Part shown: positions 4,988-26,675 of the stretch, piece by piece
Layout: every line of letters begins with the position of its first letter
Position numbering within the stretch: position 1 is the first letter of the stretch
Virus record (IMG/VR): IMGVR_UViG_2617270943_000004
Span: 1-40,994 of that record
Origin: a virus
Lineage: Duplodnaviria; Heunggongvirae; Uroviricota; Caudoviricetes
Reading direction: 5' to 3' (one strand)
DNA: 40,994 nt
Made by a program: the position numbers and the translations under genes
The notes under the pieces: generated by a model
The model's database searches: none
Seen by the model: only the letters and a program-made list of their open reading frames with translations
What the model was told of the DNA's origin: nothing

Positions 4988-5000
4988 TCCGGAGAAAATA

Positions 5001-5501
5001 ATGAGTAAGAGACGTCACGAGGTAGTAACTCGGGAGCGCCTTATGGAGGTTCTCGATTACAATAAAGAAACAGGAATTTTCACTTGGAAAAAGAAATTAA
5101 GCGCCAGAGGTGCTGTTGGGAAAGTTGCTGGCACAATTTCTTATGGATATAACGCAATTAATATTGATGGCGTAAGATATTTTGCACATAGACTTGCCTG
5201 GCTGTATGTATATGGCGAATGGCCCAAACAAGAGATTGACCACATTGATAGAAATAGAAGAAATAACGCAATCTCAAACCTTAGGGATGTCAGCAGAGTC
5301 GTAAACGCATTAAATGTCGGACCTCGAAATAGCAATGCTGGAATCAAGGGGGTAACTTTCTGTCAAGCCAGAAATCAATGGCAAGCTCAGATAAATGTCT
5401 CAGGTAAAAACATAACCCTTGGGAGATTCAACACCATTGATGAAGCGGCTATAGCTTATAAGGCAGCAAACATGGTTGCTGACCATCTGTTGAGTAGGTA
5501 A
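5001..5501 (+). CDS. HNH endonuclease with AP2-like DNA-binding domain (free-standing homing-endonuclease-like)
   Basis: 166 aa; GGAG 7 nt upstream of ATG 5001; HNH-like motif [13 protein letters not shown]-terminal GIKGVTF...W.A.I...GK...[15 protein letters not shown] resembles an AP2 domain; paralogous to the ORF at 26109-26675. Confidence 0.65.
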
Positions 5502-5569
5502 TGTCTGTCATTTAATTTGCTCCAGATAAAAGGAATCGCCGCAGCATAGCTACGGTGAGTTTTGGGCAT

Positions 5570-5600
5570 AAAAAACCCAGACTAAGCTGGGTTGATTTTT
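5570..5600. terminator. Bidirectional intrinsic terminator
   Basis: Hairpin AACCCAG-ACTAAG-CTGGGTT (5574-5593) with an A-run upstream and T-run downstream, so it reads as a terminator on both strands; sits between the convergent HNH gene and the antirepressor-like gene. Confidence 0.5.
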
Positions 5601-5614
5601 ATGAAAAGATTAAA

Positions 5615-6340
5615 TTAGGCTGCGGTAGAAACATTAATTAGATTTCTCAATACTTCAACTCCTTTTAAGTTGTAGCGAAACGCCTCTACCTGTTTGCTGG
5701 AATGCGCCGATTTATCCAGGAAGAACTTCCCGTACTGCTCAGTTTTGAGGTTGTTTGCGTTAGCAATGCGACCAATCTTGTTGGCCGTTACTCCAAGCTG
5801 CTCTGCAACCTCCCCTGCTGAGTAGTAATGCTCTTCTATTGCCGGAAGAGGTATTGCATTAAAACCAACAAGCGGGTTGATTATAGTTGCTGCCGCTGTC
5901 TGCTTTGCCTCCGGCGCAAGATTTGGCATCAGATCGAACAGATTGGTAACAGCTTCAACCGTCATTTTCAGTGTTCGCGCTTGACGATACTCAACAAGTC
6001 CACTCGCTGATTTACCGCTTTTAATGTGTGCTTCCTGCATACTTTCAAGTTTGTCTACAAGTGTTCGGCGAACTGCTTTAGATTCGCGAGCAGCAACACG
6101 AAGCGCCTGCTTGATAGTCATGGAGATAACATCAATGTCAGCCCCGTTTTTCCGACCTACACTTTTTGTGTAGGTCTCGCCCTCCAATTCATCCTCAATT
6201 TTCTCGATGAATTTGTTGTTACGTACAGATGGCTCTCCACATAACTTGCGAGCTTCATTAACCATCATCAGAAGACTTTGGCTGTCAATGGTTTTATCCG
6301 TGACAACGGATCCGATGTTTGCTACATTCTTCAAAGTCAT
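5615..6340 (-). CDS. Phage antirepressor-like protein, C-terminal (KilAC/ANT-C-like) type; family tentative
   Basis: ATG at 6340 preceded by AAGGAA; the ORF-track start at 6391 is a GTG inside a terminator hairpin; lies in the immI-like block downstream of arc-like and Bro-N-like genes. Confidence 0.45.
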   Translation of the reverse strand: MTLKNVANIGSVVTDKTIDSQSLLMMVNEARKLCGEPSVRNNKFIEKIEDELEGETYTKSVGRKNGADIDVISMTIKQALRVAARESKAVRRTLVDKLESMQEAHIKSGKSASGLVEYRQARTLKMTVEAVTNLFDLMPNLAPEAKQTAAATIINPLVGFNAIPLPAIEEHYYSAGEVAEQLGVTANKIGRIANANNLKTEQYGKFFLDKSAHSSKQVEAFRYNLKGVEVLRNLINVSTAA

Positions 6341-6409
6341 TAGGCATTCCTTATGTGGTAGTAAGGGTGTGACATAGGCCGCCAGCAGCACACTGGCGGT
6401 TTTCTTTTT
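6335..6409 (+). ncRNA. Predicted sar-like antisense RNA overlapping the start codon and RBS of the antirepressor-like gene
   Basis: Plus-strand promoter-like TGACAA (6301-6306), 16-bp spacer, TACATT (6323-6328), and about 75 nt downstream a plus-strand intrinsic terminator (stem CCGCCAG/CTGGCGG 6379-6399, then TTTTCTTTTT). Nearby genes are on the minus strand, so the transcript would be antisense to the ATG at 6340. Confidence 0.35.
6379..6409 (+). terminator. Intrinsic terminator on the plus strand (3' end of predicted antisense RNA)
   Basis: 7-bp GC-rich stem, 7-nt loop, followed by TTTTCTTTTT. Confidence 0.55.
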
Positions 6410-6428
6410 GCGCAGTCCGGCGCACCAA

Positions 6429-7055
6429 TCAATGAATCCATTCCTCGCCGCGAAGTTTTGCCAGCATTGGCTGAGCGTTCTTTACGACAAAATTGTTGGT
6501 ATCAAGATTCTTCATTTCACGAAGAAGTGATTTCTTGGTTTCTTCTGACATGTAGCGAGTCTCATATGCAATATCGTAAATCCTTCCTGAAAGCTCAGAA
6601 CCAATTTGCTTCATTCCTGGGTAGATGTGTTTGCACATTTGTTGACTCTTCTCCATCCACAATTGTAAGTAGCAGAGATTAACCAGTTCTTCGTCAGTAA
6701 ACTGTTTTGCAATCGGTGAGCATTCTGCCTGCCGATCCAAAATATCCAGCACCCAGCGGCGGAACTCTTTGGCTACCGGAGTGCGAGCAAACATCGCGAT
6801 TAGGTGGGCACCGCGTAGTGAGAAAACTCGCACTTTTTTGCGATAATTTCCTGAGGTACTCACTTCGAGTACCTGAGTCATTCCGGCGCTAAACTCATCG
6901 CTATACTTGTTATAAATCATTGTTACTGCACGACTATTTGCGTATTTAAGTGCAGATGCAATATTAGATGATGTAAACCAAACACCATGCATATCACGGG
7001 TGGGCACCAACTCAACTCCGTGGAAGTTGTAATCTGATTTTGCTACAATATTCAT
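6429..7055 (-). CDS. Phage antirepressor, N-terminal Bro-N/AntA-like domain protein
   Basis: ATG 7055 preceded by AAGGAA; N-terminus MNIVAKSDYNFHGVELVPTRDMHGVWFTSSNIASAL resembles Bro-N/AntA antirepressor N-domains; follows the arc-like gene as ant follows arc in P22 immI. Confidence 0.6.
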   Translation of the reverse strand: MNIVAKSDYNFHGVELVPTRDMHGVWFTSSNIASALKYANSRAVTMIYNKYSDEFSAGMTQVLEVSTSGNYRKKVRVFSLRGAHLIAMFARTPVAKEFRRWVLDILDRQAECSPIAKQFTDEELVNLCYLQLWMEKSQQMCKHIYPGMKQIGSELSGRIYDIAYETRYMSEETKKSLLREMKNLDTNNFVVKNAQPMLAKLRGEEWIH

Positions 7056-7128
7056 GTTAGTTTCCTTGCATACGGTTACTGACATAGAGGCCCGGTTTGT
7101 GTTCGCGCACTGCCGGGCTTCGCTATTT

Positions 7129-7302
7129 TTACTGGGCATTAGCTCTTTCCTCTCTCAGGCTTTTAGCCAGTCGCTGCACAATCGCAGAGTTGATAGAAAT
7201 TCCATCCATTTCAGCAACACGTCTAATCTCCTCCTTCATTCGCGCTGGCAAACGAAGCTGGAAACTTTGACTTTTACGACCTGTGTAAAGCACATCTTTC
7301 AT
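7129..7302 (-). CDS. arc: Arc-like ribbon-helix-helix repressor
   Basis: 57 aa from ATG 7302 with GGGAGG RBS; FQLRLPARMKEEIRRVAEMDGISINSAIVQRLAKS follows the recalled P22 Arc pattern (FNLRWPREVLDLVRKVAEENGRSVNSEIYQRV). Confidence 0.7.
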   Translation of the reverse strand: MKDVLYTGRKSQSFQLRLPARMKEEIRRVAEMDGISINSAIVQRLAKSLREERANAQ

Positions 7303-7323
7303 AAGTAATCCTCCCACAATGAT

Positions 7324-7377
7324 ACCAACTTGGTTCTAGAACCAATTTAACACCATTTATTTTGATGTCAAGTTGGT
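7324..7377. promoter_or_regulatory. Divergent arc/mnt control region with a 16-bp perfect palindrome and a flanking 9-bp inverted repeat pair
   Basis: TTGGTTCTAGAACCAA at 7330-7345; ACCAACTTG (7324-7332) and its reverse complement CAAGTTGGT (7369-7377). Confidence 0.45.
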
Positions 7378-7413
7378 GCTATTGTTTGGCGAACATCTTT
7401 ACGTTGAGGTCAT

Positions 7414-7797
7414 ATGAGCAAGTTCCCTAGTCATGAAATGGATAGGTTCAATATCAGGCTTCCGGCAGGAATGCGGGATGCTATAGCCTTAAGAGCAAAG
7501 GAAAACGGCAGATCAATGAATACAGAACTAGTGTTTATCATTGATGATGCATTGAAGTCTCCGGTGCCTGCTGAGGTTGATAACTCAAGGATTATGAAGA
7601 TTTACTCAAACCTCTCCGAGAACAGGCCATCAAACAAAGAAGAGTTTGAGCGGTGGGAGAATGAGCTAGTCAAAGCAATTTTCTACTTACTAGATAGCAT
7701 AAGTTCTCATTCGCAAATGTATCAAGCTCTCAGGAGCTTAAGGCAAGATGCATATAAAAATGTTTTTGGCGATGATGCTGAAGACATCCAGTTTTGA
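7414..7797 (+). CDS. mnt: Mnt-like ribbon-helix-helix repressor with C-terminal extension
   Basis: 127 aa; GAGGT RBS; N-terminus FNIRLPAGMRDAIALRAKENGRSMNTELVFIIDDALKS follows the recalled P22 Mnt pattern (FNFRMPMEVREKLKFRAEANGRSMNSELLQIVQDALS). Confidence 0.65.
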   Translation: MSKFPSHEMDRFNIRLPAGMRDAIALRAKENGRSMNTELVFIIDDALKSPVPAEVDNSRIMKIYSNLSENRPSNKEEFERWENELVKAIFYLLDSISSHSQMYQALRSLRQDAYKNVFGDDAEDIQF

Positions 7798-7845
7798 AGA
7801 CCATTTCATCTGGTATCCTGCGCAAAACTAAGGAGAGTTAATTAT

Positions 7846-8331
7846 ATGAAAAAATCACTGTTAATTATCCCGCTTCTGCTGGCTGGGTGCGCAAAAGTAA
7901 GCGACCATCAGGCAAGTTGCGAGCAACGCTATCCAAAGCTTAGCGATATGGCTAATTGCCTTGATGCCAGCGTGAAGAACGACTCACGCATGGCATCAGC
8001 ACCAACACCTAAGCTGTATGTCCTTGCTGCGAAAATGCTCGGGCAAGGTGTCGATGAAGGCAAGATAAGTGACGCACAGGCAAGACTTGAGCTTCAGAAT
8101 CTTTATGTTCAATTACAAAGCCAAGAACAAGCACAACAAATAGCACAAAGCCAAGCATTCCAGCAGGCTTTATTGAATTATCAGGCTGTAAACACAATGC
8201 AAGCGATCGAGCAAAAAGCGCGCCAGCCTGTTATAACTCAACCTTACCCAACACGCGTTGACACCTATACAAACTGCAATTCAGGATTTGGAAATACCGT
8301 CACATGCAACAGTAGCAGCAACATTAGATAA
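7846..8331 (+). CDS. Predicted lipoprotein, glutamine-rich (accessory gene in the sieA position)
   Basis: 161 aa; AAGGAGAG RBS; signal peptide MKKSLLIIPLLLAGC with lipobox LAGC; Q-rich central segment; sits between mnt-like and the ejection-protein genes. Confidence 0.6.
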   Translation: MKKSLLIIPLLLAGCAKVSDHQASCEQRYPKLSDMANCLDASVKNDSRMASAPTPKLYVLAAKMLGQGVDEGKISDAQARLELQNLYVQLQSQEQAQQIAQSQAFQQALLNYQAVNTMQAIEQKARQPVITQPYPTRVDTYTNCNSGFGNTVTCNSSSNIR

Positions 8332-8333
8332 AG

Positions 8334-10448
8334 CTATTCATATTCATTCATACCGCTTAACGAGGCGACAATACCAGCTCTCGACAAGCGATTGAATTCA
8401 TCGCTACCAATAGCATCGCGTATTGCTTTTACGGCGGCTTTATTTTCCATAAATCTGCGTTCCGCCGCCGCTAATGCTTCTTTACTTCCGCCAGTTCTTA
8501 CTGCTTTCGTGGCTTCCTGAACTGCTTTCTCTATCGCATATCGACCGCTACGCGTGGTGGCAATTTTAGATACAGCACCTTTTAACCCGGCGCCAACTAA
8601 AGCACCTGCGGCAGCGCCTGCAATGCCCCCTCCTGCTCCACCAACAATGGCACCTGATGTTGAGTTGGCAATTGCATTTAACACTGTTGATGTGACGTTG
8701 GATAAACCGGCATCCAGATCGCGTAGTACATTGGCAGTTCTCCCTGTTCTTTCAATATACTGCTGAGGTTTCACTGCTGCTCTTGCAAGAGTGCCATATG
8801 CATCAGCAATTCTTCCGAGTTCTGAGGAATATCTGCTAATGGCTTTTACATTTTGTGGGGTAAGTATCCCTGCGATATGGTTAATTCCTGCTGCATCAGC
8901 TTTGCCACCACGTACACCATGCGAGATAGCATCTTGCAACATTGATGATATAGCAGGAACACGCTCTGATTCTGGCAGCGCGCGGATCATAGAATGGAAC
9001 CCAGCAGGACCATTAAGACCTTTAGCTGACGATGATTGAAGGGATTTTACTCCATTCGTAATCAGTGCATCTGTTGCCAAATCACGCCCGAAAACAGACT
9101 CTGCACTCTCTTGTGCTGATAACCTCGCTTTAGACAGATCATTAGCTTTCTGCCAGTCATCAAGAAATCCGCCGTTTTCCGCCATTGTGCGCATATCATC
9201 AGTAATTGCCCGGCGTATTTCCCCTACTCTCCTTGCCGCATTTGCCTCTCCGCTACGCTTATATTTTTGCTCCGCATCAGCAAATTTCGCTCTCCATGCT
9301 TTCATGCCATCAAATGTTACTCCACCTTGATTGTTTGCCTGAACAAACTGTTTCATTTCAGGAGTAAGCGGTATGCCAGCAGATCGCTCTGCCTGAATAA
9401 CGGCATTACCATTTAGCATTCTTGCTTTTTGATTTGGCATTGTTGACCGCACGTCATCCCATGCCGCGCGCTCGGCATCCTTCATCTGATCAAGATTTTG
9501 AAGAATCCTTTGTTTTATAGCCGCACTTTTTTCTGATGCCGTTCCAGATGCGGCCCCAAATTCATCAAGGTTTCGACTTAACTTTGATGATATTTCGTTA
9601 AATGCTGCCTGATGGGCGTCCTGAACAATTCCAGGTGTTGATGCCAATGCGCCTTCGGCTTGTGCAATTCCACGACTTCCAGATCGCATTCCTGGTGTTA
9701 ATGCGTTTATATCAATTCCAGCAGACTCAGCTGCTTTTGCTACATCTTCGGACACATTAGCGGCCTGACTGGCAATTGACTGACGCCCAGCACCTGACTT
9801 TGCCATCCTGGAAACATCATTAGCAGAATTCAGTGCTGCACCACCAAGAGCCTGTGAAACCTTTGGCGCAATAACGCGCCCGACACCTGAAAGAACGCCT
9901 TGAGCACCAATATTGATACCACCGTTAATGGCAGCATTTTGTGCAAAATCACCCTCCTGATTTGCAGCATCAGCAAGAGAACCGGCAATCATGTTTCCTG
10001 CGGAACCGATGTCTCCTGCGAGCTTTGCTGGCGCTCCAGCAGCTTTTGCCGCTGTGCCAATTGGCAGGAGATACCCACCAATTGTTTCACCGGCTTGCGC
10101 GTAAGGGTCTGTCGGTCGATCGACTGGACGATAGACATCATCCAAAACCTTGGGGCCACCAAGCCCCTGGCTGATTGCATTAATCAGACTTGCGCCACCC
10201 TGCAATACGTCAAATGGTATGTTTACCAGACCACGACCAGCCTGTTCTGCAATTTGCCCTGCACTTTGACCACCAGTGAGCCAGTCAGTGGCTTTTCCTA
10301 CCAGAGATTGTTCTTCTGGCTGCGATTGGTTTTGAGTGGATTGATCACCAGAAGACAGCATCTGAGCAATGCGACGTGCTCCCTCAGTATCACCGGCAGC
10401 ATCAGCATTCCTTAACGCCGTCATCAACTGTTCGCGACTATAGGCCAT
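8334..10448 (-). CDS. Ejection (internal virion) protein, P22 gp16-like
   Basis: 704 aa, Ala/Gly-rich; position in the conserved P22-like order (16 after 20 after 7). Confidence 0.55.
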
Positions 10449-11713
10449 TACTGCCCTCCGAGATATTTATTAATCAGGTCATCATCAGAAAGCTGCTGTT
10501 GAGACGGTTGTATGTCCTTCCCGTATTTCTGTTGCATACGTTTCTGAGCCATCTCAGTGGTTTTTATGATTGTTTTGATAGCTGCTCTGGCTGATTTTTC
10601 AGACTGATTTGGGGACAAACTACCAATAGCATCCATTACCTTTTGCCCCTCGGCATTACTTAAAGCCCCCATCCCTTTCATCTGCTGAATGCCAGATAAG
10701 AATCCCTGAGATTTCAGTGTGTCAACCAGAGTTTCTGTATCAGCAGCCTCTGTTCCTGGAATGAATCTACTCGATAGTGGGTTTAGGTTTGTTCCGAAAT
10801 ATCCCGTGAATCCTGGGCTATTAAGAACTTTTGTAGCCGTCTCTATCGTTCTGGAGAGATTATCCATTCCAGAGTTGTACGCATCGGCCTTATCTCGCTT
10901 TGCCTGCTCCATAGCTTGCTGATTCTGCAATCTCTTGTCCTGCAATTCAGCAAGTTTTAAGGCATTAGTTTCATTTGCGATGAGTCTGTCGTATTTCTTG
11001 TCCTCTAATTCCATCCGACGAAGATTGACATTTTGTTGCGCAATATTGTTGCTTGCCCACCCTCTGGCATTTGTCATGTCATTATTACGGATTGTTTCGT
11101 TAATTCTTTGCTGCTCCTGCTGGCGACCAGCCATCTTGTCCTGAACATTGAAGTAATCAATCGGACCAAGAGCAGCCATTCCGAGGTGATCAACAAACTC
11201 ACCAAATCCTGAAGGGTTCTGCTGATACATCTGAGCAACGCTGTTAGGGTCAACACCGACGCGAGTCAGTTCCTTGGCGTTGTTTTGCAGCCATGATTGC
11301 ATTGCTTCTGGAGACGATGACGCAAGGCGTGCGCCAGCCGCTAAGGTGCCGATAGAATTACGCTGATCTTCATCAATGAATCCCATGCCTTTACGAACTG
11401 ATTCAATCTGGTCTGGATATTGAGTAGCCAACTGACGCAAAGCACCGCGATCACCAGACGCATAAGCATTAGCGTATGCCTGCTGAAATTCTTTCTGCCG
11501 CTGAGCCTGCTTTTCCTGCTGAAAAACACCCGCAATACCAGAAAGACCTTGCAAAGCAGTCAGCCCAACATTGTTAGCGCCTGAACGCTCAATATCATTG
11601 TTCTGCCTGATAAGCTGAAGCGTATTGCCGATGTCATTTACGTTAGGAGCGTTTGAGTTGACGCCACCGATACCAGCCAACAATCCGCCGTTTGTTCCTT
11701 GCCAAGTAGCCAT
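10448..11713 (-). CDS. Ejection protein, P22 gp20-like
   Basis: 421 aa; synteny; start overlaps the downstream gene stop. Confidence 0.55.
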
Positions 11714-11722
11714 GATTACCCC

Positions 11723-12415
11723 TTAAAACAACGAGCCAAGCAATCCGATACCAGCACCAATGCCAGCGCCCCAAGGCGTTGATGTTCCCAAAAGGCTGGC
11801 AAGACCTGCACCGGCAATCGCACCAGACGTGCCGCCGCTAATTGCAGTCTGAAGACTTGATGGTTTATTGGCATTAGCAGCGGCAAGAGCCGCACTTTGC
11901 TGTGCAATGCTGCTCATGTTGTTGGCGTATGTCTGCCCAGCGTTTGCCTGACCTTGCAGCGCACCAAGCCCAACGTTTGCCAGATTGTTGTAATTGCTCA
12001 TCTGGTTTGATAACCAAGACTGACCGAGAGTCGGCGCGATCGTAGCCAGTTGATTGCTTGTGGCTGTCGAACCAAGTCCACCCGTCGCCTCCGCAGCAGC
12101 AAGACTCTGGTAACGAGCCTGATCTGCAAGGTCTTTATACTGCTGAGAGTTGTAATACTGATTAAGTGCCTGCCCCTGACCTTCTAGACTGGAAAGGTTC
12201 TGAAGCTGGTTAACATACTGCTCCGCAAGAGGCGTGAACGGAGCAAGGTTTTTCATGATCGTCTGCCACTGCTGATTTTGCAGGTCTGCGGCATACTTCT
12301 GAGCTTCTGCTGCATACTTTGCGCTTTTATCAGAACTGCCACCTTTCCCACCCTTTTCAGGGCAATAAGGTTCCTCGCCGCGCAGTTTTCTGCCCAGCTT
12401 AAATGCATATAACAT
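11723..12415 (-). CDS. Ejection protein, P22 gp7-like
   Basis: 230 aa (P22 gp7 is about 229 aa); synteny. Confidence 0.6.
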   Translation of the reverse strand: MLYAFKLGRKLRGEEPYCPEKGGKGGSSDKSAKYAAEAQKYAADLQNQQWQTIMKNLAPFTPLAEQYVNQLQNLSSLEGQGQALNQYYNSQQYKDLADQARYQSLAAAEATGGLGSTATSNQLATIAPTLGQSWLSNQMSNYNNLANVGLGALQGQANAGQTYANNMSSIAQQSAALAAANANKPSSLQTAISGGTSGAIAGAGLASLLGTSTPWGAGIGAGIGLLGSLF

Positions 12416-12417
12416 GG

Positions 12418-12873
12418 CTATCTCCCGTGATTCAGGAAGTCGATTAGTTCTTCGCGTGTGGCGCTGTAAAAAGTCACGTCATCCACGCCTTTAAAGTATT
12501 TCTTGATGGTTCCGACACGCTTAAGGCCAATCATTGCGCAGTAAATCTGCCCGTGGCGGAATTTGCGTGCGGCGAACGATGTGACGCACTGAACGGTGGT
12601 GTTAGTCAGAATGTATCGCCAGAACGCCAGCCCGATTTCCTTGCTGAAGCCGCGAATCTCTGGCAGGTACATGGCGTGGCAATCGAATGTCAGCGGCTGA
12701 ATCTCCTGATAGTAAACAATGCCGCCGAACTGCCCGTGCACGTTCACCTCAAAGTAACGGCATTCAGGCTTGTAGTCGTATCCATCACCGTTGTTGCTCC
12801 CGGCAATAATGTCAGGGTGATTTCCGACAGCTTCGATCAGGTCGATGTTTCGCGTTGGTTTGAATGTAATCAT
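12418..12873 (-). CDS. P22 gp14-like virion assembly/ejection accessory protein
   Basis: 151 aa; between the tail needle and gp7-like genes as in P22. Confidence 0.45.
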   Translation of the reverse strand: MITFKPTRNIDLIEAVGNHPDIIAGSNNGDGYDYKPECRYFEVNVHGQFGGIVYYQEIQPLTFDCHAMYLPEIRGFSKEIGLAFWRYILTNTTVQCVTSFAARKFRHGQIYCAMIGLKRVGTIKKYFKGVDDVTFYSATREELIDFLNHGR

Positions 12874-14992: not shown

Positions 14993-15001
14993 TTATTCAC
15001 C

Positions 15002-15463: not shown

Positions 15464-15632
15464 CTTCTTCCGCCTTAGCCACTTTATGCTTCGTTGCGGT
15501 TTCTTCAGGAGTTTTTACCCAGCCTTTTTTCAGGTGAGATTTAACTTCTTCGTCATCAACAATGATGTAATCGACAGCAAACTGACCGCAGGTGATCATG
15601 TTGCCAGGCTTATAGAGCATTGTTCGTGCCAT
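15444..15632 (-). CDS. Hypothetical small protein
   Basis: 62 aa from ATG 15632 with GGGAGAAG RBS; between coat and gp4-like genes. Confidence 0.35.
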   Translation of the reverse strand: MARTMLYKPGNMITCGQFAVDYIIVDDEEVKSHLKKGWVKTPEETATKHKVAKAEEDGENEG

Positions 15633-15640
15633 TGTCTTCT

Positions 15641-15667: not shown

Positions 15668-15673
15668 CCAAAA

Positions 15674-16927: not shown

Positions 16928-16945
16928 GCTTAATGCTCCGATAGG

Positions 16946-17839: not shown

Positions 17840-17929
17840 TTGTTACCCCTGTTTACTCGATGTTCAGCCCATCGGAAGGCAATAGGGTGCCAGGCCTCAT
17901 AAAGACAGCCATTGCACGTTATGGGTTAA

Positions 17930-20146
17930 TTACTGCTGTGGTTGTTGCCGGGTTGATTTTTGCAGGATGCTGCTGATGTCCATGCGCTGCGCATGGCCCT
18001 GTGCCTGACTTTTCAGGACAAGCTCTGCATCAGCACGGGCATTGTCTCCTTGCTGTTGCTGGAACTGTCCGAGCAGTTTCAGAGCCTCGCGGATATCAGA
18101 TTTCTGCTGGCTATCGGCAGATGCGAGTATTTTCACAACATTTGCCGCTGCAACCTGAGCATCAGTCTGTGCCTGGAATGCTTTAACCTGAATGGCTGCC
18201 TGTTCGTTCTGCGCTTTCTGCAATTCAGCCTGACCAGCAAGAAGCTGACCTTGCGCAGCAACCATAGCCGGATCTGGCTGACTGGCCTGTTGTTGTTTCG
18301 CCTGCTCAACCATCTTCTGTTCTTCTGGTGTTCTCGGCTTGATAACTCCAGACAGAAGCAACTGATTGCGGTTGTATTCTTTAAGGTCGTCCATCCCTTC
18401 GCCGTCCATATTGTCGAGAATCATCGACGATACAAGGTCGTGCTTCGGAGTTCCTGGTGGGATAAGTGCCAGCATGGAAAGTAACGACTTAACCGTCGCA
18501 TCACGGCGAGTAGCGAACGACTGGCCAACATCGACAGTCACTTCATAGTTACCCTGCGAAAGGTCATTAAGCGCGATAACCTGCCCTGTCTGACGGTCAA
18601 CCACTTCACCAGTCATCAGCGCCACGTCATCGCTGCCATCCTCATTAACGATGCGCATTGGCGTATCGCTGCCATAGACTTCACGAGCCATAGAAAGCCA
18701 CACGACGCCAGCACGGCGCATGGATTTAGCCATGTTGTCCATGTAGATATAGGACTGCGTGTCCATCCGGTTAAAGATGCTATCAACGGTATCGGTAGCG
18801 ACGTTGCTCGGCATGTTCTCAAGCTGCGACGCACCTGTAATTTGCTGAATAGCCGTTCCGGTGTACTGCAATAGCCCGGCAAGAGCAGGAGGCATTTGTG
18901 TCGGAGGTGTCCAGCCAGCAACCTGAGCCTCTGAAATGACTGTTCCGTTTTTGTCCTTCTTGCTGGTCATAGGAAGAACTGCAGGTCTTTTCTTATTCCT
19001 CTCTGCCCAGTGATTCATTAATGGACCTGGAATGAAATCAACATCCACGATAGGAATGCCATCACCGCCAGCCTGAGTAGCGTTATCTGCAATCATGGAA
19101 ACCATCAGATTCTCAAGACGCTGTGCATCCATCGCTTTTGCTGCGTGGCCTTCGATTCGCTCCTGATTATCAACAAATGAACGACGCCCATATACCGGGA
19201 TGAGAGGAATATGTTCGCCCGGAATACGCTTCGGTTCTTCCAGCCATTCAGCGCCAGACAGAAGGCCGCAATAAACGCGGCGTTTCTTCACTGTCCGCTC
19301 GCCAATCAGTTCGAATGCGCCATCGGTCAGCTCGTCGACAATATCTTTGATTTGATCTTCATCATAGATTGCCGTTTCTCCGCTAACAGGGTTACGCCAT
19401 GCTGTGAGCTTCACCTTCTCTATGCGAACTTCGTAGTAGCGACCAACATAGATAGCATCAGGAGTTGACCAGTCATATTGAGTGCCAGTGTCATCACGAG
19501 AAAGGCTTGCCGCGATGGAATCAGGGTATTCAGCCTCGAACGCTTTAGGCGTCATGGAGAACATTTCCATAGCCCACATAGCATCAGAGCGGTCATATTG
19601 CTTGCTGTCCTGATCGAAGAAGACGCATGTCGCTGGGTCGTAAACAGGAAGAAGGCTGATGCGTCGCTGCTCGTTACTCGGATCCATTTCATCTTCGTAA
19701 TCGGCACACATGCGGAAACAACCGAATCCGCCCGTTACAGCATCATCAAATGCGTTATCACACGCTTCGCCACCGGATGTTTCCTGATAGTCAGCGCGGA
19801 ATTTGCCGTTCATTTTTTCGGCTAACGCTTCCGATGCCTTGTCATCCTTAGGCCTGAACTTAACGCTGATGCGATTCTGTCGATACTCGCCAATGATGCG
19901 ATCACATTCACGGGCAATCTTATTCAGTTCAAAACGCGGGTAATGCTCAAACCTGCCTTCATCAAATGAGTAACCAGCGTTTGTGCTGCCTTCCCACTGT
20001 GCGCCGGACACCCGGACGAAACGTTGAGCCTCAATAATCTGCTCTCGCATATCCTGCGTTGCTGACCAGGCATTATCAAAGTTGCACAGCACCTTGCGAT
20101 GCCAGTCAGCCATCTTTCTATCATCAGCCATCATCCAACTCCGCAA
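17930..20146 (-). CDS. Portal protein (P22 gp1-like)
   Basis: 738 aa; Q/A-rich C-terminal helical tail as in P22 portal; follows terminase. Confidence 0.8.
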   Translation of the reverse strand: MRSWMMADDRKMADWHRKVLCNFDNAWSATQDMREQIIEAQRFVRVSGAQWEGSTNAGYSFDEGRFEHYPRFELNKIARECDRIIGEYRQNRISVKFRPKDDKASEALAEKMNGKFRADYQETSGGEACDNAFDDAVTGGFGCFRMCADYEDEMDPSNEQRRISLLPVYDPATCVFFDQDSKQYDRSDAMWAMEMFSMTPKAFEAEYPDSIAASLSRDDTGTQYDWSTPDAIYVGRYYEVRIEKVKLTAWRNPVSGETAIYDEDQIKDIVDELTDGAFELIGERTVKKRRVYCGLLSGAEWLEEPKRIPGEHIPLIPVYGRRSFVDNQERIEGHAAKAMDAQRLENLMVSMIADNATQAGGDGIPIVDVDFIPGPLMNHWAERNKKRPAVLPMTSKKDKNGTVISEAQVAGWTPPTQMPPALAGLLQYTGTAIQQITGASQLENMPSNVATDTVDSIFNRMDTQSYIYMDNMAKSMRRAGVVWLSMAREVYGSDTPMRIVNEDGSDDVALMTGEVVDRQTGQVIALNDLSQGNYEVTVDVGQSFATRRDATVKSLLSMLALIPPGTPKHDLVSSMILDNMDGEGMDDLKEYNRNQLLLSGVIKPRTPEEQKMVEQAKQQQASQPDPAMVAAQGQLLAGQAELQKAQNEQAAIQVKAFQAQTDAQVAAANVVKILASADSQQKSDIREALKLLGQFQQQQGDNARADAELVLKSQAQGHAQRMDISSILQKSTRQQPQQ

Positions 20147-21627
20147 GGTATGTTGTAGCTTGAGTAATCAATCTCTTTAGGATCTTTGATGTCTCGCATC
20201 TGTATTGCAAAACGCCTCATCATGTAGCCATAGCGAACAGCAGAAAGGATGTCGTCGTTTAGCTTGACGATCTTCCCGTTCTCATCGCGGTGATACAGGC
20301 GAAACTCTTCAAAGAATGGCTCGCAGGTGTTAAATACCTTGAAACGACCGTCGAGCATCATGTCGCGTATCTCTGCTATCCCGGGTTCGACCGCATTACC
20401 TCCATCAGGCCATGTTGCATGATCTGGCAACATGTCGAACCCAGCGTCGGCGTATTGTTCCTTGAGCTGAGCGCCGCCTCCCTTTTCGTGCTGATGCCCG
20501 TCATGAGGCCAAGCCGTAGGGGTGTTTTTGCTCCATGCTTTAACAGCACTCCATGCCTCCGTCGCCTTCTTCTGTTTGGCCTTCCAGACGCGAGAAAGAT
20601 AAATCACGTCCTCGTCTTTATCCCACCAAAGCTGGATATGTGCCTGTGGGTGATCCCATCCGAAGTCCATTGCATTGATGACGTAGAAGTGATCAGGACA
20701 CTCGAACGGCTGACACTTAATCGTCTCTTCCGGTATCTGGAAGATTCGACCACTACCCATCGTAGGGATACCGCGAGCACGCGCCTCTCTCTCATGCTCG
20801 GGATATGATGCGATGATTTGCTCTTTCTGCTCGTCGGTGTAGTGCTCAGCGTCATAGATGGTCATGTTGACCACTTTCTGCGACTTGCTTGGATTCTTCA
20901 GGAACTTGGTAACAACGTCAGACATCCCCATCAGCGGGGTAAACGTCAGAATTGAGAATTGCCCGTATTTGTTGGTACGGGTAAGACCTTCGCCATAAAT
21001 GCTGTATGGTGGCTCTTCGTCAAACCACACGCCGTGGATTGTGTCACCCTGCCAGCGAGCGCGGCCTTGCGAGTATGGTTTGAAGTAGCAGATTGAAATG
21101 CCATCTTCAACGCCATCAGCCGTGTGATGCTTAACCAGAAGATGATCAACAAGGTTCGGAAAGAAAGGAGACTTCTTCCAGCTAATGATGTCTTCTTTAG
21201 GTATGGAACCGTAGCCTGGCTCATCATTCTCTTCGATACGACCGCACAGGATGCGTTGAGTCGTTTTGGTTACCGTCTCGTTTGTCTCGCCACCAATCCA
21301 GAAGACAACAGGCTCATAGAAACGCTTACCTTTCCACTCCCCACCATATTTACCATCAGCAGGATAGCCTTTTGTGCCCGGATAACGCCCTGTAAGGTGA
21401 AACGCGACTTCAGCAGCACCAGTAAATGACTTACCAAGCTGGTTACCAGCCATAAAACAGCGCTCTGGATAGTCATGCCCGGCGTCGATGAACTCACGCT
21501 GTTTGCTGTATGGCGTAAATTCATATAGCAGGTGTGTGTTCCGGTAGTTCTCTTCTTCTTCGAGTAGCTCGAGCAATTCGATTTGCTCTTCGTCGCTCAG
21601 GTTATCAAGAATCGCGTCCAGTTCCAC
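20131..21627 (-). CDS. Terminase large subunit
   Basis: 498 aa (P22 gp2 is about 499); acidic N-terminus; synteny. Confidence 0.8.
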
Positions 21628-22099
21628 GGTTGAATAGCTCCTTGATACGAGAGCGTCGCTTATCGCGATCTCCCTTATCAGGTGTCACGTCTTCAACTTG
21701 CGACTGCTCTTTGAGGCCCAAATCACGGGCGATGATGTTAGCGTTGAGAAGGTCAGCGGCTGCGCCAGAGAATTTCTGGTCGTAGATGACCTGTTCTGCT
21801 CGCGTAACGACTTCAGATAAATCTTCTCGCAGGCGATATGTGCGCCATGTTTCAAGCGTCACATCAATGAACAGAGTGAGTCCGGTAATGGTCATCGCTC
21901 GCATCTTGGCGATAGGCTCTTGTATCACTTCACCCTGATACGAGAACGCCTTCATCTCCCATAGCGGGTTAGCTTCAACCCACTCGAAGTATTCACAACA
22001 AGCAGCCCACAGCGCCTCAGGCGATTCGAATTTAGGATTTCGCCCATGACTACTGCGGGCCTCCCAAAATCGGTTGCCCTTTGGTGCTGCCATATTCAT
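21605..22099 (-). CDS. Terminase small subunit
   Basis: 164 aa, immediately upstream of and overlapping the large subunit gene. Confidence 0.6.
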
Positions 22100-22128
22100 C
22101 TCACTTAGTTGTTATTTCAGGTTGAGCA

Positions 22129-22371
22129 TCATGCTCCGGTGGTGAACAGGTCTAACGCTTCCTTCGATTTACGCACCGCTTCGATAGTGCGAGATGTGAA
22201 GTCTGGATTTGCACCGCCATCGTTGTAGTGCAACTTAAACAATTCCAGTTTCAGCTGGTCAGCACCAATGAATGCAAAAGCTTCCTCTGCCGCTGAATTG
22301 TTCTTAGATAGCAGTCGGTAAATTTCTAACTTGAATTTCTGTTCTTCAGTCATGGGAATAATCTCTGCCAT
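22129..22371 (-). CDS. Hypothetical protein
   Basis: 80-aa ORF with RBS-like ACGGAG; no family recognised. Confidence 0.4.
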   Translation of the reverse strand: MAEIIPMTEEQKFKLEIYRLLSKNNSAAEEAFAFIGADQLKLELFKLHYNDGGANPDFTSRTIEAVRKSKEALDLFTTGA

Positions 22372-22670
22372 TGTTGGCTCCGTTTATCCGTTAAAAGGGA
22401 TATCAGTTAAGTTATCCCGTGTAGGGTATAAGTCATTGTCGAGACCACTCATTGAATGGCCTCTGCAATAACCGATGTCTTTCCATCAGTCCGCCACCAC
22501 AAAGAATCTTTTTTGCCATAAGGCTGGAGGTTCATCTTTCAGTGGCTGCCAGTGTTATTTCCCCACTTACTGGCTTGGGTTGTTTCGCGGTACTGCCGTA
22601 ACTGGTTGCCCAGAATAAATTCCGGTTTCATTATCAAGCCCACCCGTAGATAGGCTTTGTAATGACATCT

Positions 22671-23195
22671 TCAATTAATCAGCAGTTCAGGCTGTGTCAC
22701 CTGCAAGATGTATTCATGCTCGACAGCCAGGACACGCTTCTCTTTCTTCCGTTCGTTCATTAACCGACTGCCGATCGTACCTTTCAGCTTTGAGCGTGTT
22801 TCTTTGATGGCGTAGCGGTGCTGCATTTCTTCGCCAATTGCCATGCGGCGGCTCAGTTGCTCTGCCATCCAGTTGAATGCTGCGATATAGCTCTCCTTGA
22901 TTGTCGCAGCAGCTTTCCCGGTGAACCCCATCACAACCATGATCCAGCCATCTTTCGTCAGGCTGTACATCGGGCGAACCTTGCCCTGCTCATCGATATA
23001 ATCAGCCGACGCAAAATTGCGTTGGCTAAACTCACGCGAGCAATCAGCCTTAACCTGCTCGATTTTCCTGAGAACATCACCGTGTCGCTTGCCGAAGTAC
23101 TTGGCAATTTTTCTGGATGTGGTAACGACCTCTCCGTTTTTGGCTTGCACCATTTCTCGGAAGTCGAAGGCTGGAATAACTGAATGATTATTCAT
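22671..23195 (-). CDS. rha: Rha-family phage regulatory protein
   Basis: 174 aa from ATG 23195; N-terminal region (TTSRKIAKYFGKRHGDVLRKIEQV...) resembles the Rha domain. Confidence 0.6.
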   Translation of the reverse strand: MNNHSVIPAFDFREMVQAKNGEVVTTSRKIAKYFGKRHGDVLRKIEQVKADCSREFSQRNFASADYIDEQGKVRPMYSLTKDGWIMVVMGFTGKAAATIKESYIAAFNWMAEQLSRRMAIGEEMQHRYAIKETRSKLKGTIGSRLMNERKKEKRVLAVEHEYILQVTQPELLIN

Positions 23196-23335
23196 AGCGT
23201 CTTTACCTTTTAGAAAGTGAGCCTGTCTCACAGAAAAGCCGCCCGAGAGAGGTCGCCACCTATAACGGCATTTCTCAGGCTCGCTTACTGAAAGGCTCTC
23301 GTTAATATGCGCGTGAGATGCGCGTTTACTGCGGA

Positions 23336-23361
23336 CATAAAAAAGCCCCGCATCGCGAGGC
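23336..23361 (-). terminator. Intrinsic terminator downstream of the lysis cassette
   Basis: Minus-strand hairpin GCCTCGC-GAT-GCGGGGC followed by TTTTTTAT. Confidence 0.5.
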
Positions 23362-23394
23362 TCATTAAATTGACTTTGTGATTTGCAAAAAAAT

Positions 23395-23832
23395 TTATTT
23401 CAGGCATTGCGTCCTGATGTACTCCTGCAGGTAGTTAACCTGCGCGGTTATCCTGTCGATTCCACTTCGGAGACGGTAATAATTGAGTTCAGCATCTGCT
23501 GTAAGTCTTGGGCTTTCTCCATCGCCCATGCTGCTGGCTCCGGTCGTTGACTTTGCACAGGTGGCGGCGACTTGCAGGCGCTTACGACCAGCAGAAACAT
23601 CAGCACGGAGACTTTCGATAGTCGCGTTAGCATCAGCAAGCTCCTTTGTATATCTGGCATCGAGTTCTGCTACGTCACGTTGACGCTTCTGCATGTCAGC
23701 GATGATGGATGTGGCTTTGTCGCGCTGTTCTTTGTAGGTCATGGCGTTATCACGGTAATGATTAACAGCCCATGACAGGCAGACGATGATGCAGATAACC
23801 AGAGCGGAGATAATCGCAGTTACTCTGCTCAT
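23395..23832 (-). CDS. Rz-like i-spanin
   Basis: 145 aa from ATG 23832 (ATGA overlap with the endolysin stop); N-terminal TM segment then a charged coiled-coil-like periplasmic domain. Confidence 0.75.
23448..23633 (-). CDS. Rz1-like o-spanin lipoprotein, embedded in the +1 frame of Rz
   Basis: 61 aa; AAGGAG 8 nt upstream of ATG 23633; signal peptide ending in lipobox VSAC; proline-rich mature region. Confidence 0.6.
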
Positions 23833-24332
23833 TGCTGCCCCCACAAACAGACTTCACGCTCAATCTCACGGCGAGTCATCAGCCCTTTCCATTGCTTACC
23901 GCCAGCGTATGTCCAGCGACGTAGCTGGTCACATGCGCCCTTGATATCGCCCTGGTTGATTTTGCGAAGAAGCGTCGATGTTCTGAAATTGCCTGCGCCC
24001 ACGTTATAGACGAACGAATAAAGAGCGCCGCGCGTTGTTTCCGGTATATCGACTTTGATGTACGGGTTAATTTGTCTGGCGACCGTGGCAAGGTCTTTAT
24101 TCAGGAGGGCTTTGCATTCTGCTTCGGTATACGTTTTACCGAGCATGATGTCTTTTCCGGTGTGTCCGTGGCATACAGTCCATACACCAACAATATCTTT
24201 GTATGGTATGTAGCTGACACCTTCCAGGCCATCGTTACCACTTGGTCCAGTGATTAACACAGATGCTATAGCAATAGCCCCGCCACTTATCGCCGCTATT
24301 ACGCTATTTCGTAGTGCCGGTGACATTGCCAT
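23829..24332 (-). CDS. Endolysin (lysozyme) with SAR-type N-terminal signal-anchor-release domain
   Basis: 167 aa; weakly hydrophobic Gly/Ala-rich N-terminus ([19 protein letters not shown]) followed by a lysozyme-like domain; recalled close match to the phage 21 R endolysin. Confidence 0.8.
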
Positions 24333-24507
24333 TCAATCTGTCCTCGCGCTCTTTGCGCTTGTAGTACCAGTTGATGCCAAATGTGCCGACAGTACAAAGA
24401 ATACCAATGATGACAGCCCAGTCATTCAGGGAGAGAATGCCACCCATCGCAGTCAGTCCTCCGAAGCTGTAACTGAACCATTCTCTGATTTTGTCCATAC
24501 GGTACAT
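24304..24507 (-). CDS. Holin, pinholin-like with dual-start motif
   Basis: 67 aa; two TM-like segments; starts MYRMDK with Met1 and Met4, like the holin/antiholin dual start of phage 21 S; overlaps the endolysin start. Confidence 0.6.
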
Positions 24508-24752
24508 GCTCTACCCCTTCATTGAGGGGATTTGCTCTATTTAATTAGGAATAAGGTCGATTACTGATAGAACAAATCCAGGCTACTGTGTTTAGTAATC
24601 AGATTTGTTCGTGACCGATATGCACGGGCAAAACGGCAGGAGGTTGTTAGCGCAACCTCATGCCACCCGCTTTCACGAAGGTCATGTGTAGAAGGCCGCA
24701 GCGTAACTATCACTGATGAATTCAGGATAGCCAGTGGCTACGGCTCAGTTAT

Positions 24753-24828
24753 GGTGCTGGTTAACGGACTTGAACCGCTACCCATTCGCTTACAAGGCGA
24801 CTGCTCTACCATTGGAGCTAAACCAGCA
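24753..24828 (-). tRNA. Phage-encoded tRNA-Thr (anticodon UGU)
   Basis: 76-nt cloverleaf on the minus strand: acceptor GCTGGTT/AACCAGC, D stem GCTC/GAGC, anticodon loop CTTGTAA, T loop GG-TTCAAGT-CC, encoded CCA. Confidence 0.6.
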
Positions 24829-24833
24829 TATTT

Positions 24834-24908
24834 GGCGGGACAGCGTGGACTCGAACCACGATAAGAAGGTTAACAGCCTTCCGTAATGACCTTTATACGA
24901 CTGACCCA
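24834..24908 (-). tRNA. Phage-encoded tRNA-Asn-like (anticodon GUU)
   Basis: 75 nt on the minus strand: anticodon stem GAAGG/CCTTC with loop CTGTTAA, T arm CGTGG-TTCGAGT-CCACG, encoded CCA; acceptor stem has one U-U mismatch and the D stem is weak. Confidence 0.5.
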
Positions 24909-24969
24909 AATAAAAAAGCCACCGCTGCAACTTAAGAGTCACTAACGGCAGCTTACCCTCTAATTATGG

Positions 24970-25488
24970 CTAAATGGCTAATTGCATGTCAAGGTTTTTA
25001 ACAGCAACATGCTTAACTTTCTCAACACGTTTACGCATTTTGAAAGCATTTTGCATTGGTTGGTACAAAACAAATAATGACGCTTTCAGGATGTCGTCAA
25101 TTTCGTTTCTACAGGTTGCCAGTGAAGGTTTTCTCCATCCCTCGCCACCACGTCCACACATCTTGCGTGGCTTTGCAGTCGCGTGATAGTAGGATGCAAT
25201 TGCTCGCTTAGATGAACCATGAGCGTAGTAGCTGAGGAGGATGCCAAAGGCTTTTTTGTCAATGTACATGACGGAATCGACGACCTGAGAAATCAACATT
25301 CCATCATCATCATTGCACATTGGCCTTGTCATAACTCTTCCCGGCTCTACGCTCTCCATGAACTTCGCTATTACGCTGCTCATGCGCTTTTCCAGACGAC
25401 CTGAATAAACCCATGCGCCCCACAGTTCAAGCCAGCCATTCAGCCACTCGTGCTGCTCTTTGGTGAGGTTTAGTTCTCTTATGCCCAT
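24970..25488 (-). CDS. Late-gene antiterminator Q-like protein
   Basis: 172 aa; AAGGGAGAAGG RBS; lies between ninG and the tRNA/lysis genes where Q sits in lambdoid phages; family assignment by position and size only. Confidence 0.5.
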   Translation of the reverse strand: MGIRELNLTKEQHEWLNGWLELWGAWVYSGRLEKRMSSVIAKFMESVEPGRVMTRPMCNDDDGMLISQVVDSVMYIDKKAFGILLSYYAHGSSKRAIASYYHATAKPRKMCGRGGEGWRKPSLATCRNEIDDILKASLFVLYQPMQNAFKMRKRVEKVKHVAVKNLDMQLAI

Positions 25489-25531
25489 GCGCCTTCTCCC
25501 TTGTTATCTGGAATGGTTTTTACTGAGAACG

Positions 25532-26134
25532 TCATGCGGCCTCACTTCTGCTATTTCGCAGGTCTTTGAGTTTCTGCTGATACTCCGCCTTGATGGCCCG
25601 GCACTCTTCGACAGTCCAGCGATGGCGGTTATGGTTTGATTCGATTTCGTCTACTGCTTCCTGCCCGATGCGATTAATCAGTTCGACGCGATACGGAACG
25701 AGATTTCCGCTTTTGTGCTGGTTGCACACCACGCATTGCTTGTGAATATTGCGTTCATCAAATCGGAGTTGAGGTGCCGCAGCAGTTGTCCGGTAATGTC
25801 CGGCATCCCACTGAGCAGACGTGAGCGTTCCGCACGAGATACATGGTAAGTCGCGGTCTCTTTCTCTGATGAAGGCGTTTACGGCTTGTTGGGCTTGTTT
25901 AATCCAGTAACTGCGGGGCTTTAAGGCGAGTTTTCGAATCTTAAGTTTATCTTTCTGTTTCTGCTCCTCTCGTCGTCGTTTCTTCTCTGCTGCTTTTTCC
26001 GCTTTTTCGCGTTCTTTGCTTCGTCGTTCGAGTGCTATCTTGGTTCCACAAATCTCATTACACCAATATTGATTTTGATATTTTGGTATAAACCATTCAT
26101 TGCAACATTTACATTTCCTTCGATAGATTCGCAT
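25532..26134 (-). CDS. ninG: NinG (Rap)-like recombination-promoting nuclease
   Basis: 200 aa from ATG 26134 with AAAGGAG RBS; Cys-rich N-terminus and lysine-rich [21 protein letters not shown] segment; recalled NinG features. Confidence 0.65.
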
Positions 26135-26675
26135 AAGTGCTCCTTTCGTTGCCGGAAAAATCACCGTAATACTTATCTCGGGCTTCTTCAGCAACTAGTA
26201 CCGCTAACTCCAGATCATCAAAGCATCCGAAGTGTTTACTCTTGCCATGGAATCCTAGCCTAACATTCCATTTTTTCTGTCGTTTGTGCCAAGTAACCCC
26301 TCTGCAACCTGATTTGCTATTCTTTCGGATCCTTATATTTCTTGAATTTTCTATTGGCAGGCATTCTCTTAAATTTTCTGGCCTATTGTCGGTCCTAATT
26401 CCATTAACGTGGTCAATTTGACCAGCAGGCCAACGATTATGAGTTATGTAAAAAACTAAGACGTGAGTTTTATATCTACGCCCATCTATCATGATCATTG
26501 AATAACCGTTGGAATCAAAAGTTCCAGCAACACTATTTAATGCTATCCTTCCCTGAGTGGGAACTTTCCATCTAAATACCCCGGTAGATTTATCGAAACT
26601 TAGTAACTCAAATATCCTTTTAACAGTTAAATCTTCTCTTTTACGGTTACGTCGTCTTCGCGCTGGTTTAGCCAT
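26109..26675 (-). CDS. HNH endonuclease with AP2-like domain (second copy)
   Basis: 188 aa; HNH-like [19 protein letters not shown]2-like [47 protein letters not shown]; overlaps the ninF stop by 8 nt and the ninG start by 26 nt. Confidence 0.65.

Follow-up and report, generated by a model that had tools for sequence, protein, structure and literature searches.

Two HNH-AP2 genes with the features of free-standing homing endonucleases in the first codons of the tailspike and ninG genes of a P22-like prophage

The two genes and their proteins

The stretch of DNA analysed here, IMG/VR record IMGVR_UViG_2617270943_000004 (Caudoviricetes; 40,994 nucleotides, hereafter the window), holds a complete P22-like (Lederbergvirus-type) prophage in which two small genes, HNH-1 and HNH-2, stand at the beginning of the tailspike gene and of ninG (Table 1). 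A first reading of the window, made from the letters and their open reading frames and called the original prediction below, had described them as paralogous, free-standing endonuclease genes that combine an HNH motif with an AP2-like domain and bear the footprint of homing endonuclease insertions. The minus strand carries the late genes, the tailspike gene and the nin region, and HNH-1 lies, as had been stated, antisense to the late operon, between the tailspike gene and an antirepressor-region gene (5615-6391).

The two domains proved to be real in both proteins. Each matches the Pfam family HNH_3 (PF13392) above its gathering score of 24.8 bits (59.7 bits for HNH-1, 42.6 bits for HNH-2) as well as PHROG 99, 'HNH endonuclease' (E 7e-63 and 5e-71, respectively), and public records already label both genes 'HNH endonuclease'. 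An alignment of 28 family members contains ten invariant columns, among them D80, H81, N93, L94, N102 and N105, and all ten are retained by HNH-1 and HNH-2; the D-H...N-L...N...N motif, which the original prediction had proposed to check by alignment, is intact in both. The catalytic D-H...N...N motif aligns with that of I-HmuI (vDHkDgNkdnNlstNLRwVtqkiNveNq), and among solved structures the family profile matches the same enzyme (1U3E) over residues 44-123 with an E-value of 2.9e-8.

Residues 111-164 of the family profile match AP2/ERF structures, namely WRI1 (8e-11), TEM1 (4e-8), ERF096 (3e-4) and ERF1 (2e-3). Single-sequence E-values against the Pfam AP2 model (PF00847) are 3.6e-6 for HNH-1 and 1.6e-4 for HNH-2, and many homologues carry a precomputed PF00847 match; searched singly against the PDB, HNH-2 yields only a marginal AP2 match (E 0.2), and the family profile is needed. 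In the AlphaFold (AF2) model of HNH-1 (pLDDT 88.2), the C-terminal part consists of three strands (118-121, 126-133, 136-143) and one helix (146-165). Foldseek, run with this model against the PDB, ranks I-HmuI (1U3E) first, with a probability of 1.00 over 95 aligned columns, a root-mean-square deviation of 3.7 and a modest E-value of 3.5e-3, and AP2 domains next, with deviations of 1.3-1.5 for TEM1 and a target TM-score of 0.67 for 1GCC (ERF1). The HNH-AP2 description holds, the predicted AP2 membership being assigned by profile and fold and not by the Pfam threshold.

HNH-1 and HNH-2 share 36% identity over 152 aligned residues (E 2e-31). They are therefore homologous, as the word paralogous had implied, and the word is too loose in another respect: from the comparisons below, they are two separate lineages of one family of at least 828 members, with unrelated targets and very different histories. 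The best local alignment of the two native insertion sites scores 14, against a shuffle mean of 15.6, and reveals no common motif, which suggests that the specificities of the two enzymes differ. Neither gene is part of an intron or intein, since HNH-1 runs on the strand opposite to its target and HNH-2 uses another frame than the restarted ninG; an Rfam scan of the whole window found three tRNAs and no intron. Both cassettes are poorer in GC (0.41 at site 1 and 0.38 at site 2) than the prophage (0.47) or the rest of ninG (0.50).

The start of HNH-1 is placed at the ATG that GenBank and RefSeq use in phage Kapi1 and in AR_0058, with a Shine-Dalgarno GGAG at 4991-4994, 6 nt ahead of it; the program-made list of open reading frames starts the gene at TTG 4959.

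Insertion into the tailspike gene

HNH-1 had been predicted to lie between genes. Its cassette is in fact located 14 nt inside the ancestral tailspike gene, on the opposite strand, and supplies this gene with a new start. The new tailspike ATG is separated from the divergent HNH-1 ATG by 22 nt, and the N-terminus MPEQLYN replaces MTDITAN; the annotations of Kapi1 and AR_0058 place the tailspike start at the equivalent position. On the far side of HNH-1, its stop codon overlaps the orphaned native start, which is identical in sequence to the gene 9 start of phage CUS-3 and of three Escherichia coli prophages with empty alleles (L006, L007 and L008). In these empty alleles, the conserved terminator segment is followed by the tailspike ribosome-binding site and ATGACAGACATTACAGCCAAT, the tailspike sequence ATGACAGACATTACAGCC thus coming directly past the terminator region. 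The Head_binding domain is present in orthologous tailspikes. The temperate phage Kapi1, which forms plaques and has O-antigen as its receptor (PMC8787464), is viable, and this indicates that the swapped tailspike start works.

The bidirectional terminator said to close HNH-1 calls for a correction. The hairpin scores as an intrinsic terminator on both strands, but it is also present in empty alleles ('bsq1' in CUS-3) and is annotated 'terminator' in epsilon34, so that a terminator between ant and gene 9 predates the insertion. It is now also placed to end HNH-1 transcripts. As a side observation, the orphan 20-codon reading frame that opens at the remnant start is presumably translated from late transcripts; the new tailspike start follows about 470 nt downstream.

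Tailspike codons 8-26, next to the insertion, diverge strongly from the common E. coli allele: compared with L007, the differences begin at 4901 and are mostly synonymous. These codons were considered as a recoded or cassette-specific co-conversion tract, a candidate that was dropped because an empty allele in strain GF43 (L022; N-terminus MTDSINAN) has them as well, with one position differing from the window over 4901-4957, and the arm is accordingly not unique to the cassette. Measured against the GF43 allele, the insertion comprises 4958-5497 in place of 18 nt. The metagenomic L026 lineage shares the variant arm, and no donor for it was found among the occupied Salmonella, Citrobacter and Mixta alleles, where identity is only 57-64%. 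On a separate note, this rare AT-rich type of tailspike 5' allele, examined in GF43 (L022, 1176-1277) and E. coli MLI104K2 (L023, 1167-1262), can occur without the endonuclease gene. It is cut off by IS1 in two genomes other than GF43, and in complete E. coli genomes HNH-1 nearly always accompanies it (15 occupied alleles, one intact empty allele).

The receptor-binding stretch of the tailspike at 4000-4636 has no near match in a collection of 50,697 phage records, whereas the head-binding 5' end (4637 onward) does. No part of 2531-4636 is common to the tailspikes of Kapi1 or AR_0058.

A conserved control region and an old lineage

The divergent region between the two new starts is specific to the cassette. 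It contains the hexamer TATAAT at 4962-4967, with a -35-like TTGGTT at 4939-4944, 17 nt upstream. In five lineages (E. coli, Salmonella, Citrobacter, Serratia and L026), TATAAT or TATGAT is found about 33 nt before the HNH start, and it is preceded by TGn in Salmonella and Citrobacter. The shared sequence CAATTATA is read by the tailspike in one frame in E. coli and in another in Salmonella and Citrobacter; its conservation despite these different frames points to constraint at the DNA level. The hexamer is likely the promoter of HNH-1, antisense within the new tailspike codons, a proposal drawn only from TATAAT and its fixed distance across lineages.

Orthologues of HNH-1 with 67-84% identity were found in prophages of Salmonella, Citrobacter, Mixta and Serratia and in one uncultured metagenomic lineage. 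Every one of them is divergent from a Head_binding tailspike gene, with a spacer of 21-33 nt, and past its stop codon all five other lineages keep a remnant of their own old start (ribosome-binding site, ATG and 8-16 nt). The neighbour on the far side varies and can be Rha, P22-type Ant, Arc or gp16 directly. The lineage is always placed where the variable immI region meets the conserved head-binding domain. Between genera, nonsynonymous divergence (dN) is about 0.14 and synonymous divergence (dS) is saturated, with dN/dS below 0.1. By these estimates HNH-1 is under strong purifying selection at one site in six lineages and at least five genera.

The relatives of HNH-2 in protein databases have 98-99% identity, and beyond these none exceeds 44%, the distant relatives P0125 and P0128 having 41-43% and genomic neighbourhoods that gave no further information. 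Set against the 67-84% orthologues of HNH-1, this distribution marks HNH-1 as an old lineage that has kept to a single site and suggests that HNH-2 arrived recently.

Insertion into ninG

HNH-2 had been described as wedged between ninF and ninG. It does overlap both genes, by 8 nt and 26 nt respectively, but the cassette lies inside the codons of ninG, about 28 nt into the gene and in the same orientation. The overlap with ninF had been taken for a trace of the insertion; it is an original feature of the ninF/ninG junction that HNH-2 acquired along with the ribosome-binding site, the ATG and the first 8-9 codons of native ninG. In the empty alleles of Sf6 and a lambda-like prophage, ...GAAGACGATGGCTAAACCAGCGCGAAGACGATGTAAAAACGATGAATG... 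encodes the NinG start, whose ATG overlaps the ninF stop. The window agrees with these alleles up to ...CGAAGACGA(T)GTAA. There the empty alleles read ATGGCTAAACCAGCGCGAAGACGATGTAA followed directly by AAACGATG, and occupied alleles branch into HNH-2 at the junction of the two, to rejoin empty-allele homology at TGTGGAACCAAG, position 26050. The cassette-specific stretch at this site (26051-26646) amounts to 596 nt in place of 64 nt.

NinG is restarted from a substitute ATG, which RefSeq also annotates in L009 (strain 600055), and the 26-nt overlap with the 3' end of HNH-2 is read in another frame. The variant NinG N-terminus retains the four Cys of the native segment. The same arrangement is present in the Stx1 phage AU6Stx1 and in strains 600055 and PK8241.

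Two further alleles deserve mention. In E. coli PK8241 (L010, 245-1458), the substitute ninG start is interrupted precisely between GGAG and ATG by an IS3-family element, which alters the C-terminus of HNH-2 and parts ninG from its new ribosome-binding site. In E. coli STEC299 (L012, NZ_CP022279.1, 1494-2003), a different endonuclease gene (NUMOD4-HNH, 169 amino acids) begins at the position of the ninF-overlapping ATG that ninG and HNH-2 use elsewhere. Other genes, one of them for a RusA resolvase, come after it, and ninG is missing; nuclease genes thus seem to enter repeatedly at the 3' junction of ninF.

Table 1. Positions of the two endonuclease genes, their insertion sites and other features of the window
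Feature	Position	Strand	Remarks
HNH-1	5001-5501	+	HNH_3 and AP2 free-standing endonuclease gene, 166 amino acids, ATG start
Cassette-specific divergent control region	4958-5000		New tailspike codons 1-7, TATAAT, HNH-1 Shine-Dalgarno
Tailspike gene (P22 gene 9 homologue)	2531-4978	-	Now starts at ATG 4978; alternative ATG 4987
Variant tailspike 5' arm, codons 8-26	4901-4957	-	Diverged from common E. coli allele
Orphaned native tailspike start	5498-5523	-	GGAG 5520-5523, ATG 5509-5511, 14 nt coding, ATGACAGACATTAC
Orphan 20-codon open reading frame	5449-5511	-	Opens at remnant start, antisense into HNH-1 3' end
Bidirectional intrinsic-terminator hairpin	5574-5593	both	Terminator scan
HNH-2	26109-26675	-	HNH_3 and AP2 endonuclease gene, 188 amino acids
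Native ninG start, now HNH-2 N-terminus	26647-26675	-	ATG and first 8-9 codons, MAKPARRR
Variant AT-rich ninG 5' coding segment	26051-26134	-	Travels with the cassette
ninG (rap), substitute start	25532-26134	-	GGAG 26140-26143, 5-nt spacer, ATG 26134
ninF	26668-26844	-	Upstream neighbour of site 2
Integrase gene	1209-2402		
Host gene, formate/nitrite-transporter family	1-933		
Host gene, LacY-family symporter	39747-40994		

Empty sites and cassette conservation

The distribution of both genes was surveyed in 5426 complete E. coli genomes, with one best place listed per record. HNH-1 was found in 15 genomes, every copy with at least 99% identity, against 1138 with a match to the tailspike 5' region. 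HNH-2 was found at the same level of identity in 538 genomes (564 places), O157:H7 EDL933 being one of them, against 2058 genomes (3727 places) with a match to the nin region; the variant ninG 5' segment occurs in 538 genomes, the same number as HNH-2. Among about 123 P22-like phage records, only Kapi1 carries HNH-1, and the phage records with HNH-2 are those of the Stx1 phages AU6Stx1 and SH2026Stx1, each under two accessions. The comparison with prophages lacking the insertions, which had been suggested as a check, thus shows abundant empty-site alleles for both genes, defines the insertion points at both sites and reveals a sporadic presence.

Each cassette keeps about 99.5% identity in comparisons of phages that differ by 3-9% in the flanks. 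At site 1, the window and Kapi1 differ at 3 of 589 nt in the cassette and at 33 of 372 nt in the flanks (p 2e-11), and for AR_0058 the corresponding figures are 1/589 and 25/332. Site 2 behaves in the same way, with 3/596 nt in the cassette and 40/925 nt in the flanks compared with L009 (p 2e-6), and 1/596 and 14/544 compared with AU6Stx1. The near-identical tracts extend over 4860-5528 at site 1 and 26043-26650 at site 2. At the first site, the window, Kapi1 and AR_0058 share only an island of 0.93 kb, bordered by unrelated receptor-binding parts of the tailspike and by different immI genes. Nuclease genes at the boundaries of genetic exchange have already been published (PMC10448857), and the pattern of cassettes and flanks found here agrees with that report.

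Interpretation

The footprint recognised by the original prediction is present at both loci: an intact nuclease motif, empty sites, sporadic presence, cassettes more conserved than their flanks, and no intron. Domains and insertion anatomy are equally a matter of observation; cleavage, its specificity, present-day mobility and the promoter of HNH-1 are inferred. In our view, both genes are probably free-standing HNH-AP2 homing endonuclease genes, carried by compact cassettes of about 0.54-0.60 kb that supply a start within the first codons of their target and spread by intronless homing.

In the proposed cycle, a cassette-bearing phage or prophage would encounter an empty allele in a relative, either because the two co-infect a cell or because a polylysogen is induced. 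The enzyme would nick or cut the empty allele near the insertion point, and recombinational repair would copy the cassette with a short flank into it, as intronless homing with co-conversion. The occupied allele would escape cutting because the insertion splits the target site. Genetically, this process would appear as marker exclusion, which the original prediction had suggested and which is plausible for both genes. Synthesis of HNH-2 would rely on the delayed-early nin transcript and the translation signals of ninG. HNH-1 would depend on a separate promoter, and the prophage may express it.

Several points weigh against this interpretation. In the Pfam AP2 model, HNH-1 and HNH-2 score 27.6 and 22.3 bits, below the threshold of 33.3 bits. 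Within E. coli no copy falls below 99% identity, and many copies of HNH-2 belong to clonal lineages of Shiga toxin-producing E. coli (STEC), so that the genome counts overstate the number of independent events. Conserved cassettes in diverged flanks can also arise by ordinary, nuclease-independent homologous recombination in mosaic phages, and morons show the same pattern. At the tailspike gene, the substitute ribosome-binding site is weak, a consensus scan of 4600-5800 detected no sigma-70 site near HNH-1, and no common-type tailspike allele was found occupied without the variant arm. The variant codons themselves are a natural allele type and give no proof of co-conversion or of selected resistance.

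Instead of their own spread, the nucleases might be kept for the benefit of the phage or the lysogen, in superinfection exclusion or inter-phage competition: HNH-1 expressed from the prophage would cut superinfecting P22-like phages with the empty allele, and HNH-2 would do likewise in lytic growth. The persistence of HNH-1 at one site in six lineages with a dN/dS below 0.1 speaks for such a benefit, since simple models of the homing cycle predict decay after fixation. So do its position in the accessory immI region, its moron-like layout, with an orientation opposite to the late operon and a terminator behind it, and the conserved -10 element of the candidate promoter. An occupancy of 15 in 1138 is nevertheless too low for a generally useful defence, and the gene goes unmentioned in the Kapi1 papers. 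As the same cleavage of empty alleles is invoked, this explanation, which we consider unlikely, overlaps homing and marker exclusion rather than replacing them.

Both cassettes could also be passive relics, once mobile and now inactive or irrelevant, that are shuffled by general homologous recombination only. Such an origin would account for the mosaic boundaries on both sides of each cassette and for products of decay, which include the IS3 insertion of PK8241 at the HNH-2 3' end and ninG start and truncated copies of 112 and 104 amino acids. It accords poorly with the intact invariant catalytic residues of the two proteins, and the great majority of copies among the matches listed are of full query length with at least 99% identity. 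The dN/dS of HNH-1 across genera likewise speaks against neutrality, and the near-identical tracts stop almost exactly at the cassette borders. We regard the relic explanation as improbable.

A mainly regulatory role, in which the AP2 domain would bind DNA to control, for instance, tailspike or nin-region expression and the HNH domain would be vestigial, is scarcely credible: the AP2-like domain and the head-to-head position of HNH-1 and the tailspike start would suit this role, but the nuclease residues are invariant across the family, the two window proteins included, and the genes are missing from about 99% (HNH-1) and 85% (HNH-2) of similar loci and are consequently not needed for regulation. 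A function in packaging, of the HK97 gp74 type, was rejected without a dedicated test, as the two genes lie away from the terminase genes and most relatives lack them.

With homing endonuclease genes as the preferred interpretation, two wider proposals can be made. Start-swapping cassettes may represent a distinct and general way, free of intron and intein, for a homing endonuclease gene to reside inside a protein-coding gene, a generalisation that we put forward tentatively and about which we are rather doubtful. The tailspike-specific lineage of HNH-1 might promote the exchange of tailspike modules, and with them of host range, among P22-like phages.

Two independent lineages of one family would thereby spare the host gene in the same way, by insertion in the first codons and a swap of the start, and in the tailspike lineage this solution is conserved in six lineages and at least five genera. 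The HNH-2 cassette is carried by Stx1 prophages of O157:H7, including EDL933, and by about 10% of complete E. coli genomes, and the HNH-1 cassette adjoins the gene that determines host range in P22-like phages. Should the enzymes prove active, markers of the nin region and those close to the tailspike would be inherited with a bias when related prophages meet, and the two proteins would offer small, natural, sequence-specific nucleases with predictable target sites.

Relation to known systems

To our knowledge, homing endonucleases have barely been studied in temperate enterobacterial phages, the classic models being intron-, intein- or intergenic-borne genes in lytic phages. HNH-AP2 homing endonucleases were reportedly the subject of a 2004 Plant Cell paper by Magnani et al. 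(cited in PMC10448857). The HNH-AP2 family and the free-standing lifestyle are known; what differs from the T4 paradigm is the position in the first codons and the substitute or captured start. Our literature search found no description of either insertion site or of the conserved association with the tailspike gene.

The T-even seg and mob genes are free-standing genes known for 'intronless homing' and marker exclusion (PMC2988022). Like them, HNH-1 and HNH-2 lack an intron or intein, stand beside conserved phage genes and are sporadic among relatives. The seg and mob genes are propagated by gene conversion in which the flanks are co-converted, and MobE is likewise an HNH enzyme (PMC2988022). 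The T4 genes are, however, intergenic, and many of their products cleave at a distance of hundreds of base pairs from the place of insertion (PMC2988022), whereas the cassettes described here lie within the first 5-9 codons, at a depth of 14 nt in gene 9 and of about 28 nt in ninG. Further differences from the T4 system are the host, a temperate lambdoid/P22-like phage, and the replaced or captured start of the entered gene; nuclease activity is here a prediction.

The 'IPA-HNH' proteins of phage ICP1 (PMC10448857) resemble HNH-1 and HNH-2 in their N-terminal HNH and C-terminal AP2 domains, their phage-borne state and their location near conserved genes. They are too divergent for the Pfam HNH_3 model (PMC10448857), which both window proteins pass, and neither start-swapping insertion nor site fidelity at the tailspike gene and ninG is described in that work. 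I-HmuI of Bacillus phage SPO1 (PDB 1U3E) is the closest solved relative of the N-terminal 120 residues and shares with both proteins a DH...N...N active site without zinc-binding cysteines. It is a nicking enzyme encoded in a group I intron, with a helix-turn-helix C-terminal domain, whereas HNH-1 and HNH-2 are intronless and end in AP2.

For start capture, the nearest precedent found is gene 31 of the P22-like phage epsilon34, in which the EaE N-terminus is fused in frame to a putative HNH homing endonuclease (PMC2629481). As HNH-2 did at ninG, this gene took the start and the N-terminal codons of the gene it entered; it belongs to another HNH lineage, with relatives in Gram-positive phages, has another target, and no substitute start is described for it (PMC2629481). 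An endonuclease gene within a coding sequence whose function is retained is also provided by mobE in nrdA of Aeromonas phage Aeh1 ('genes in pieces', Friedrich et al. 2007, via PMC2988022). There, two polypeptides reassemble, whereas here a few N-terminal codons are replaced and a single full-length protein results.

Prophage setting

The prophage is integrated at the tRNA-Arg(CCT) gene argW (1009-1083), as is Kapi1. The attachment-site core CTGCAGGGGACACCATTTATC forms a 21-bp direct repeat with one copy at each end of the prophage (1069-1089 and 39297-39317).

Past the terminator lie two antirepressor-region genes (5615-7139, minus strand), where Kapi1 and CUS-3 have a single P22-type ant. 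The first (5615-6391), of 258 amino acids, has no Pfam match, and its counterpart in phage JEP4 is annotated KilA; the second encodes a protein with Bro-N and P22AR_C domains. Genes for tRNA-Thr(TGT) and tRNA-Asn(GTT) occupy 24752-24907 on the minus strand, directly downstream of the Q antiterminator and late-promoter region. The same arrangement of the two tRNA genes is found in Sf6, whose annotation likens them to the tRNAs of phage 21.

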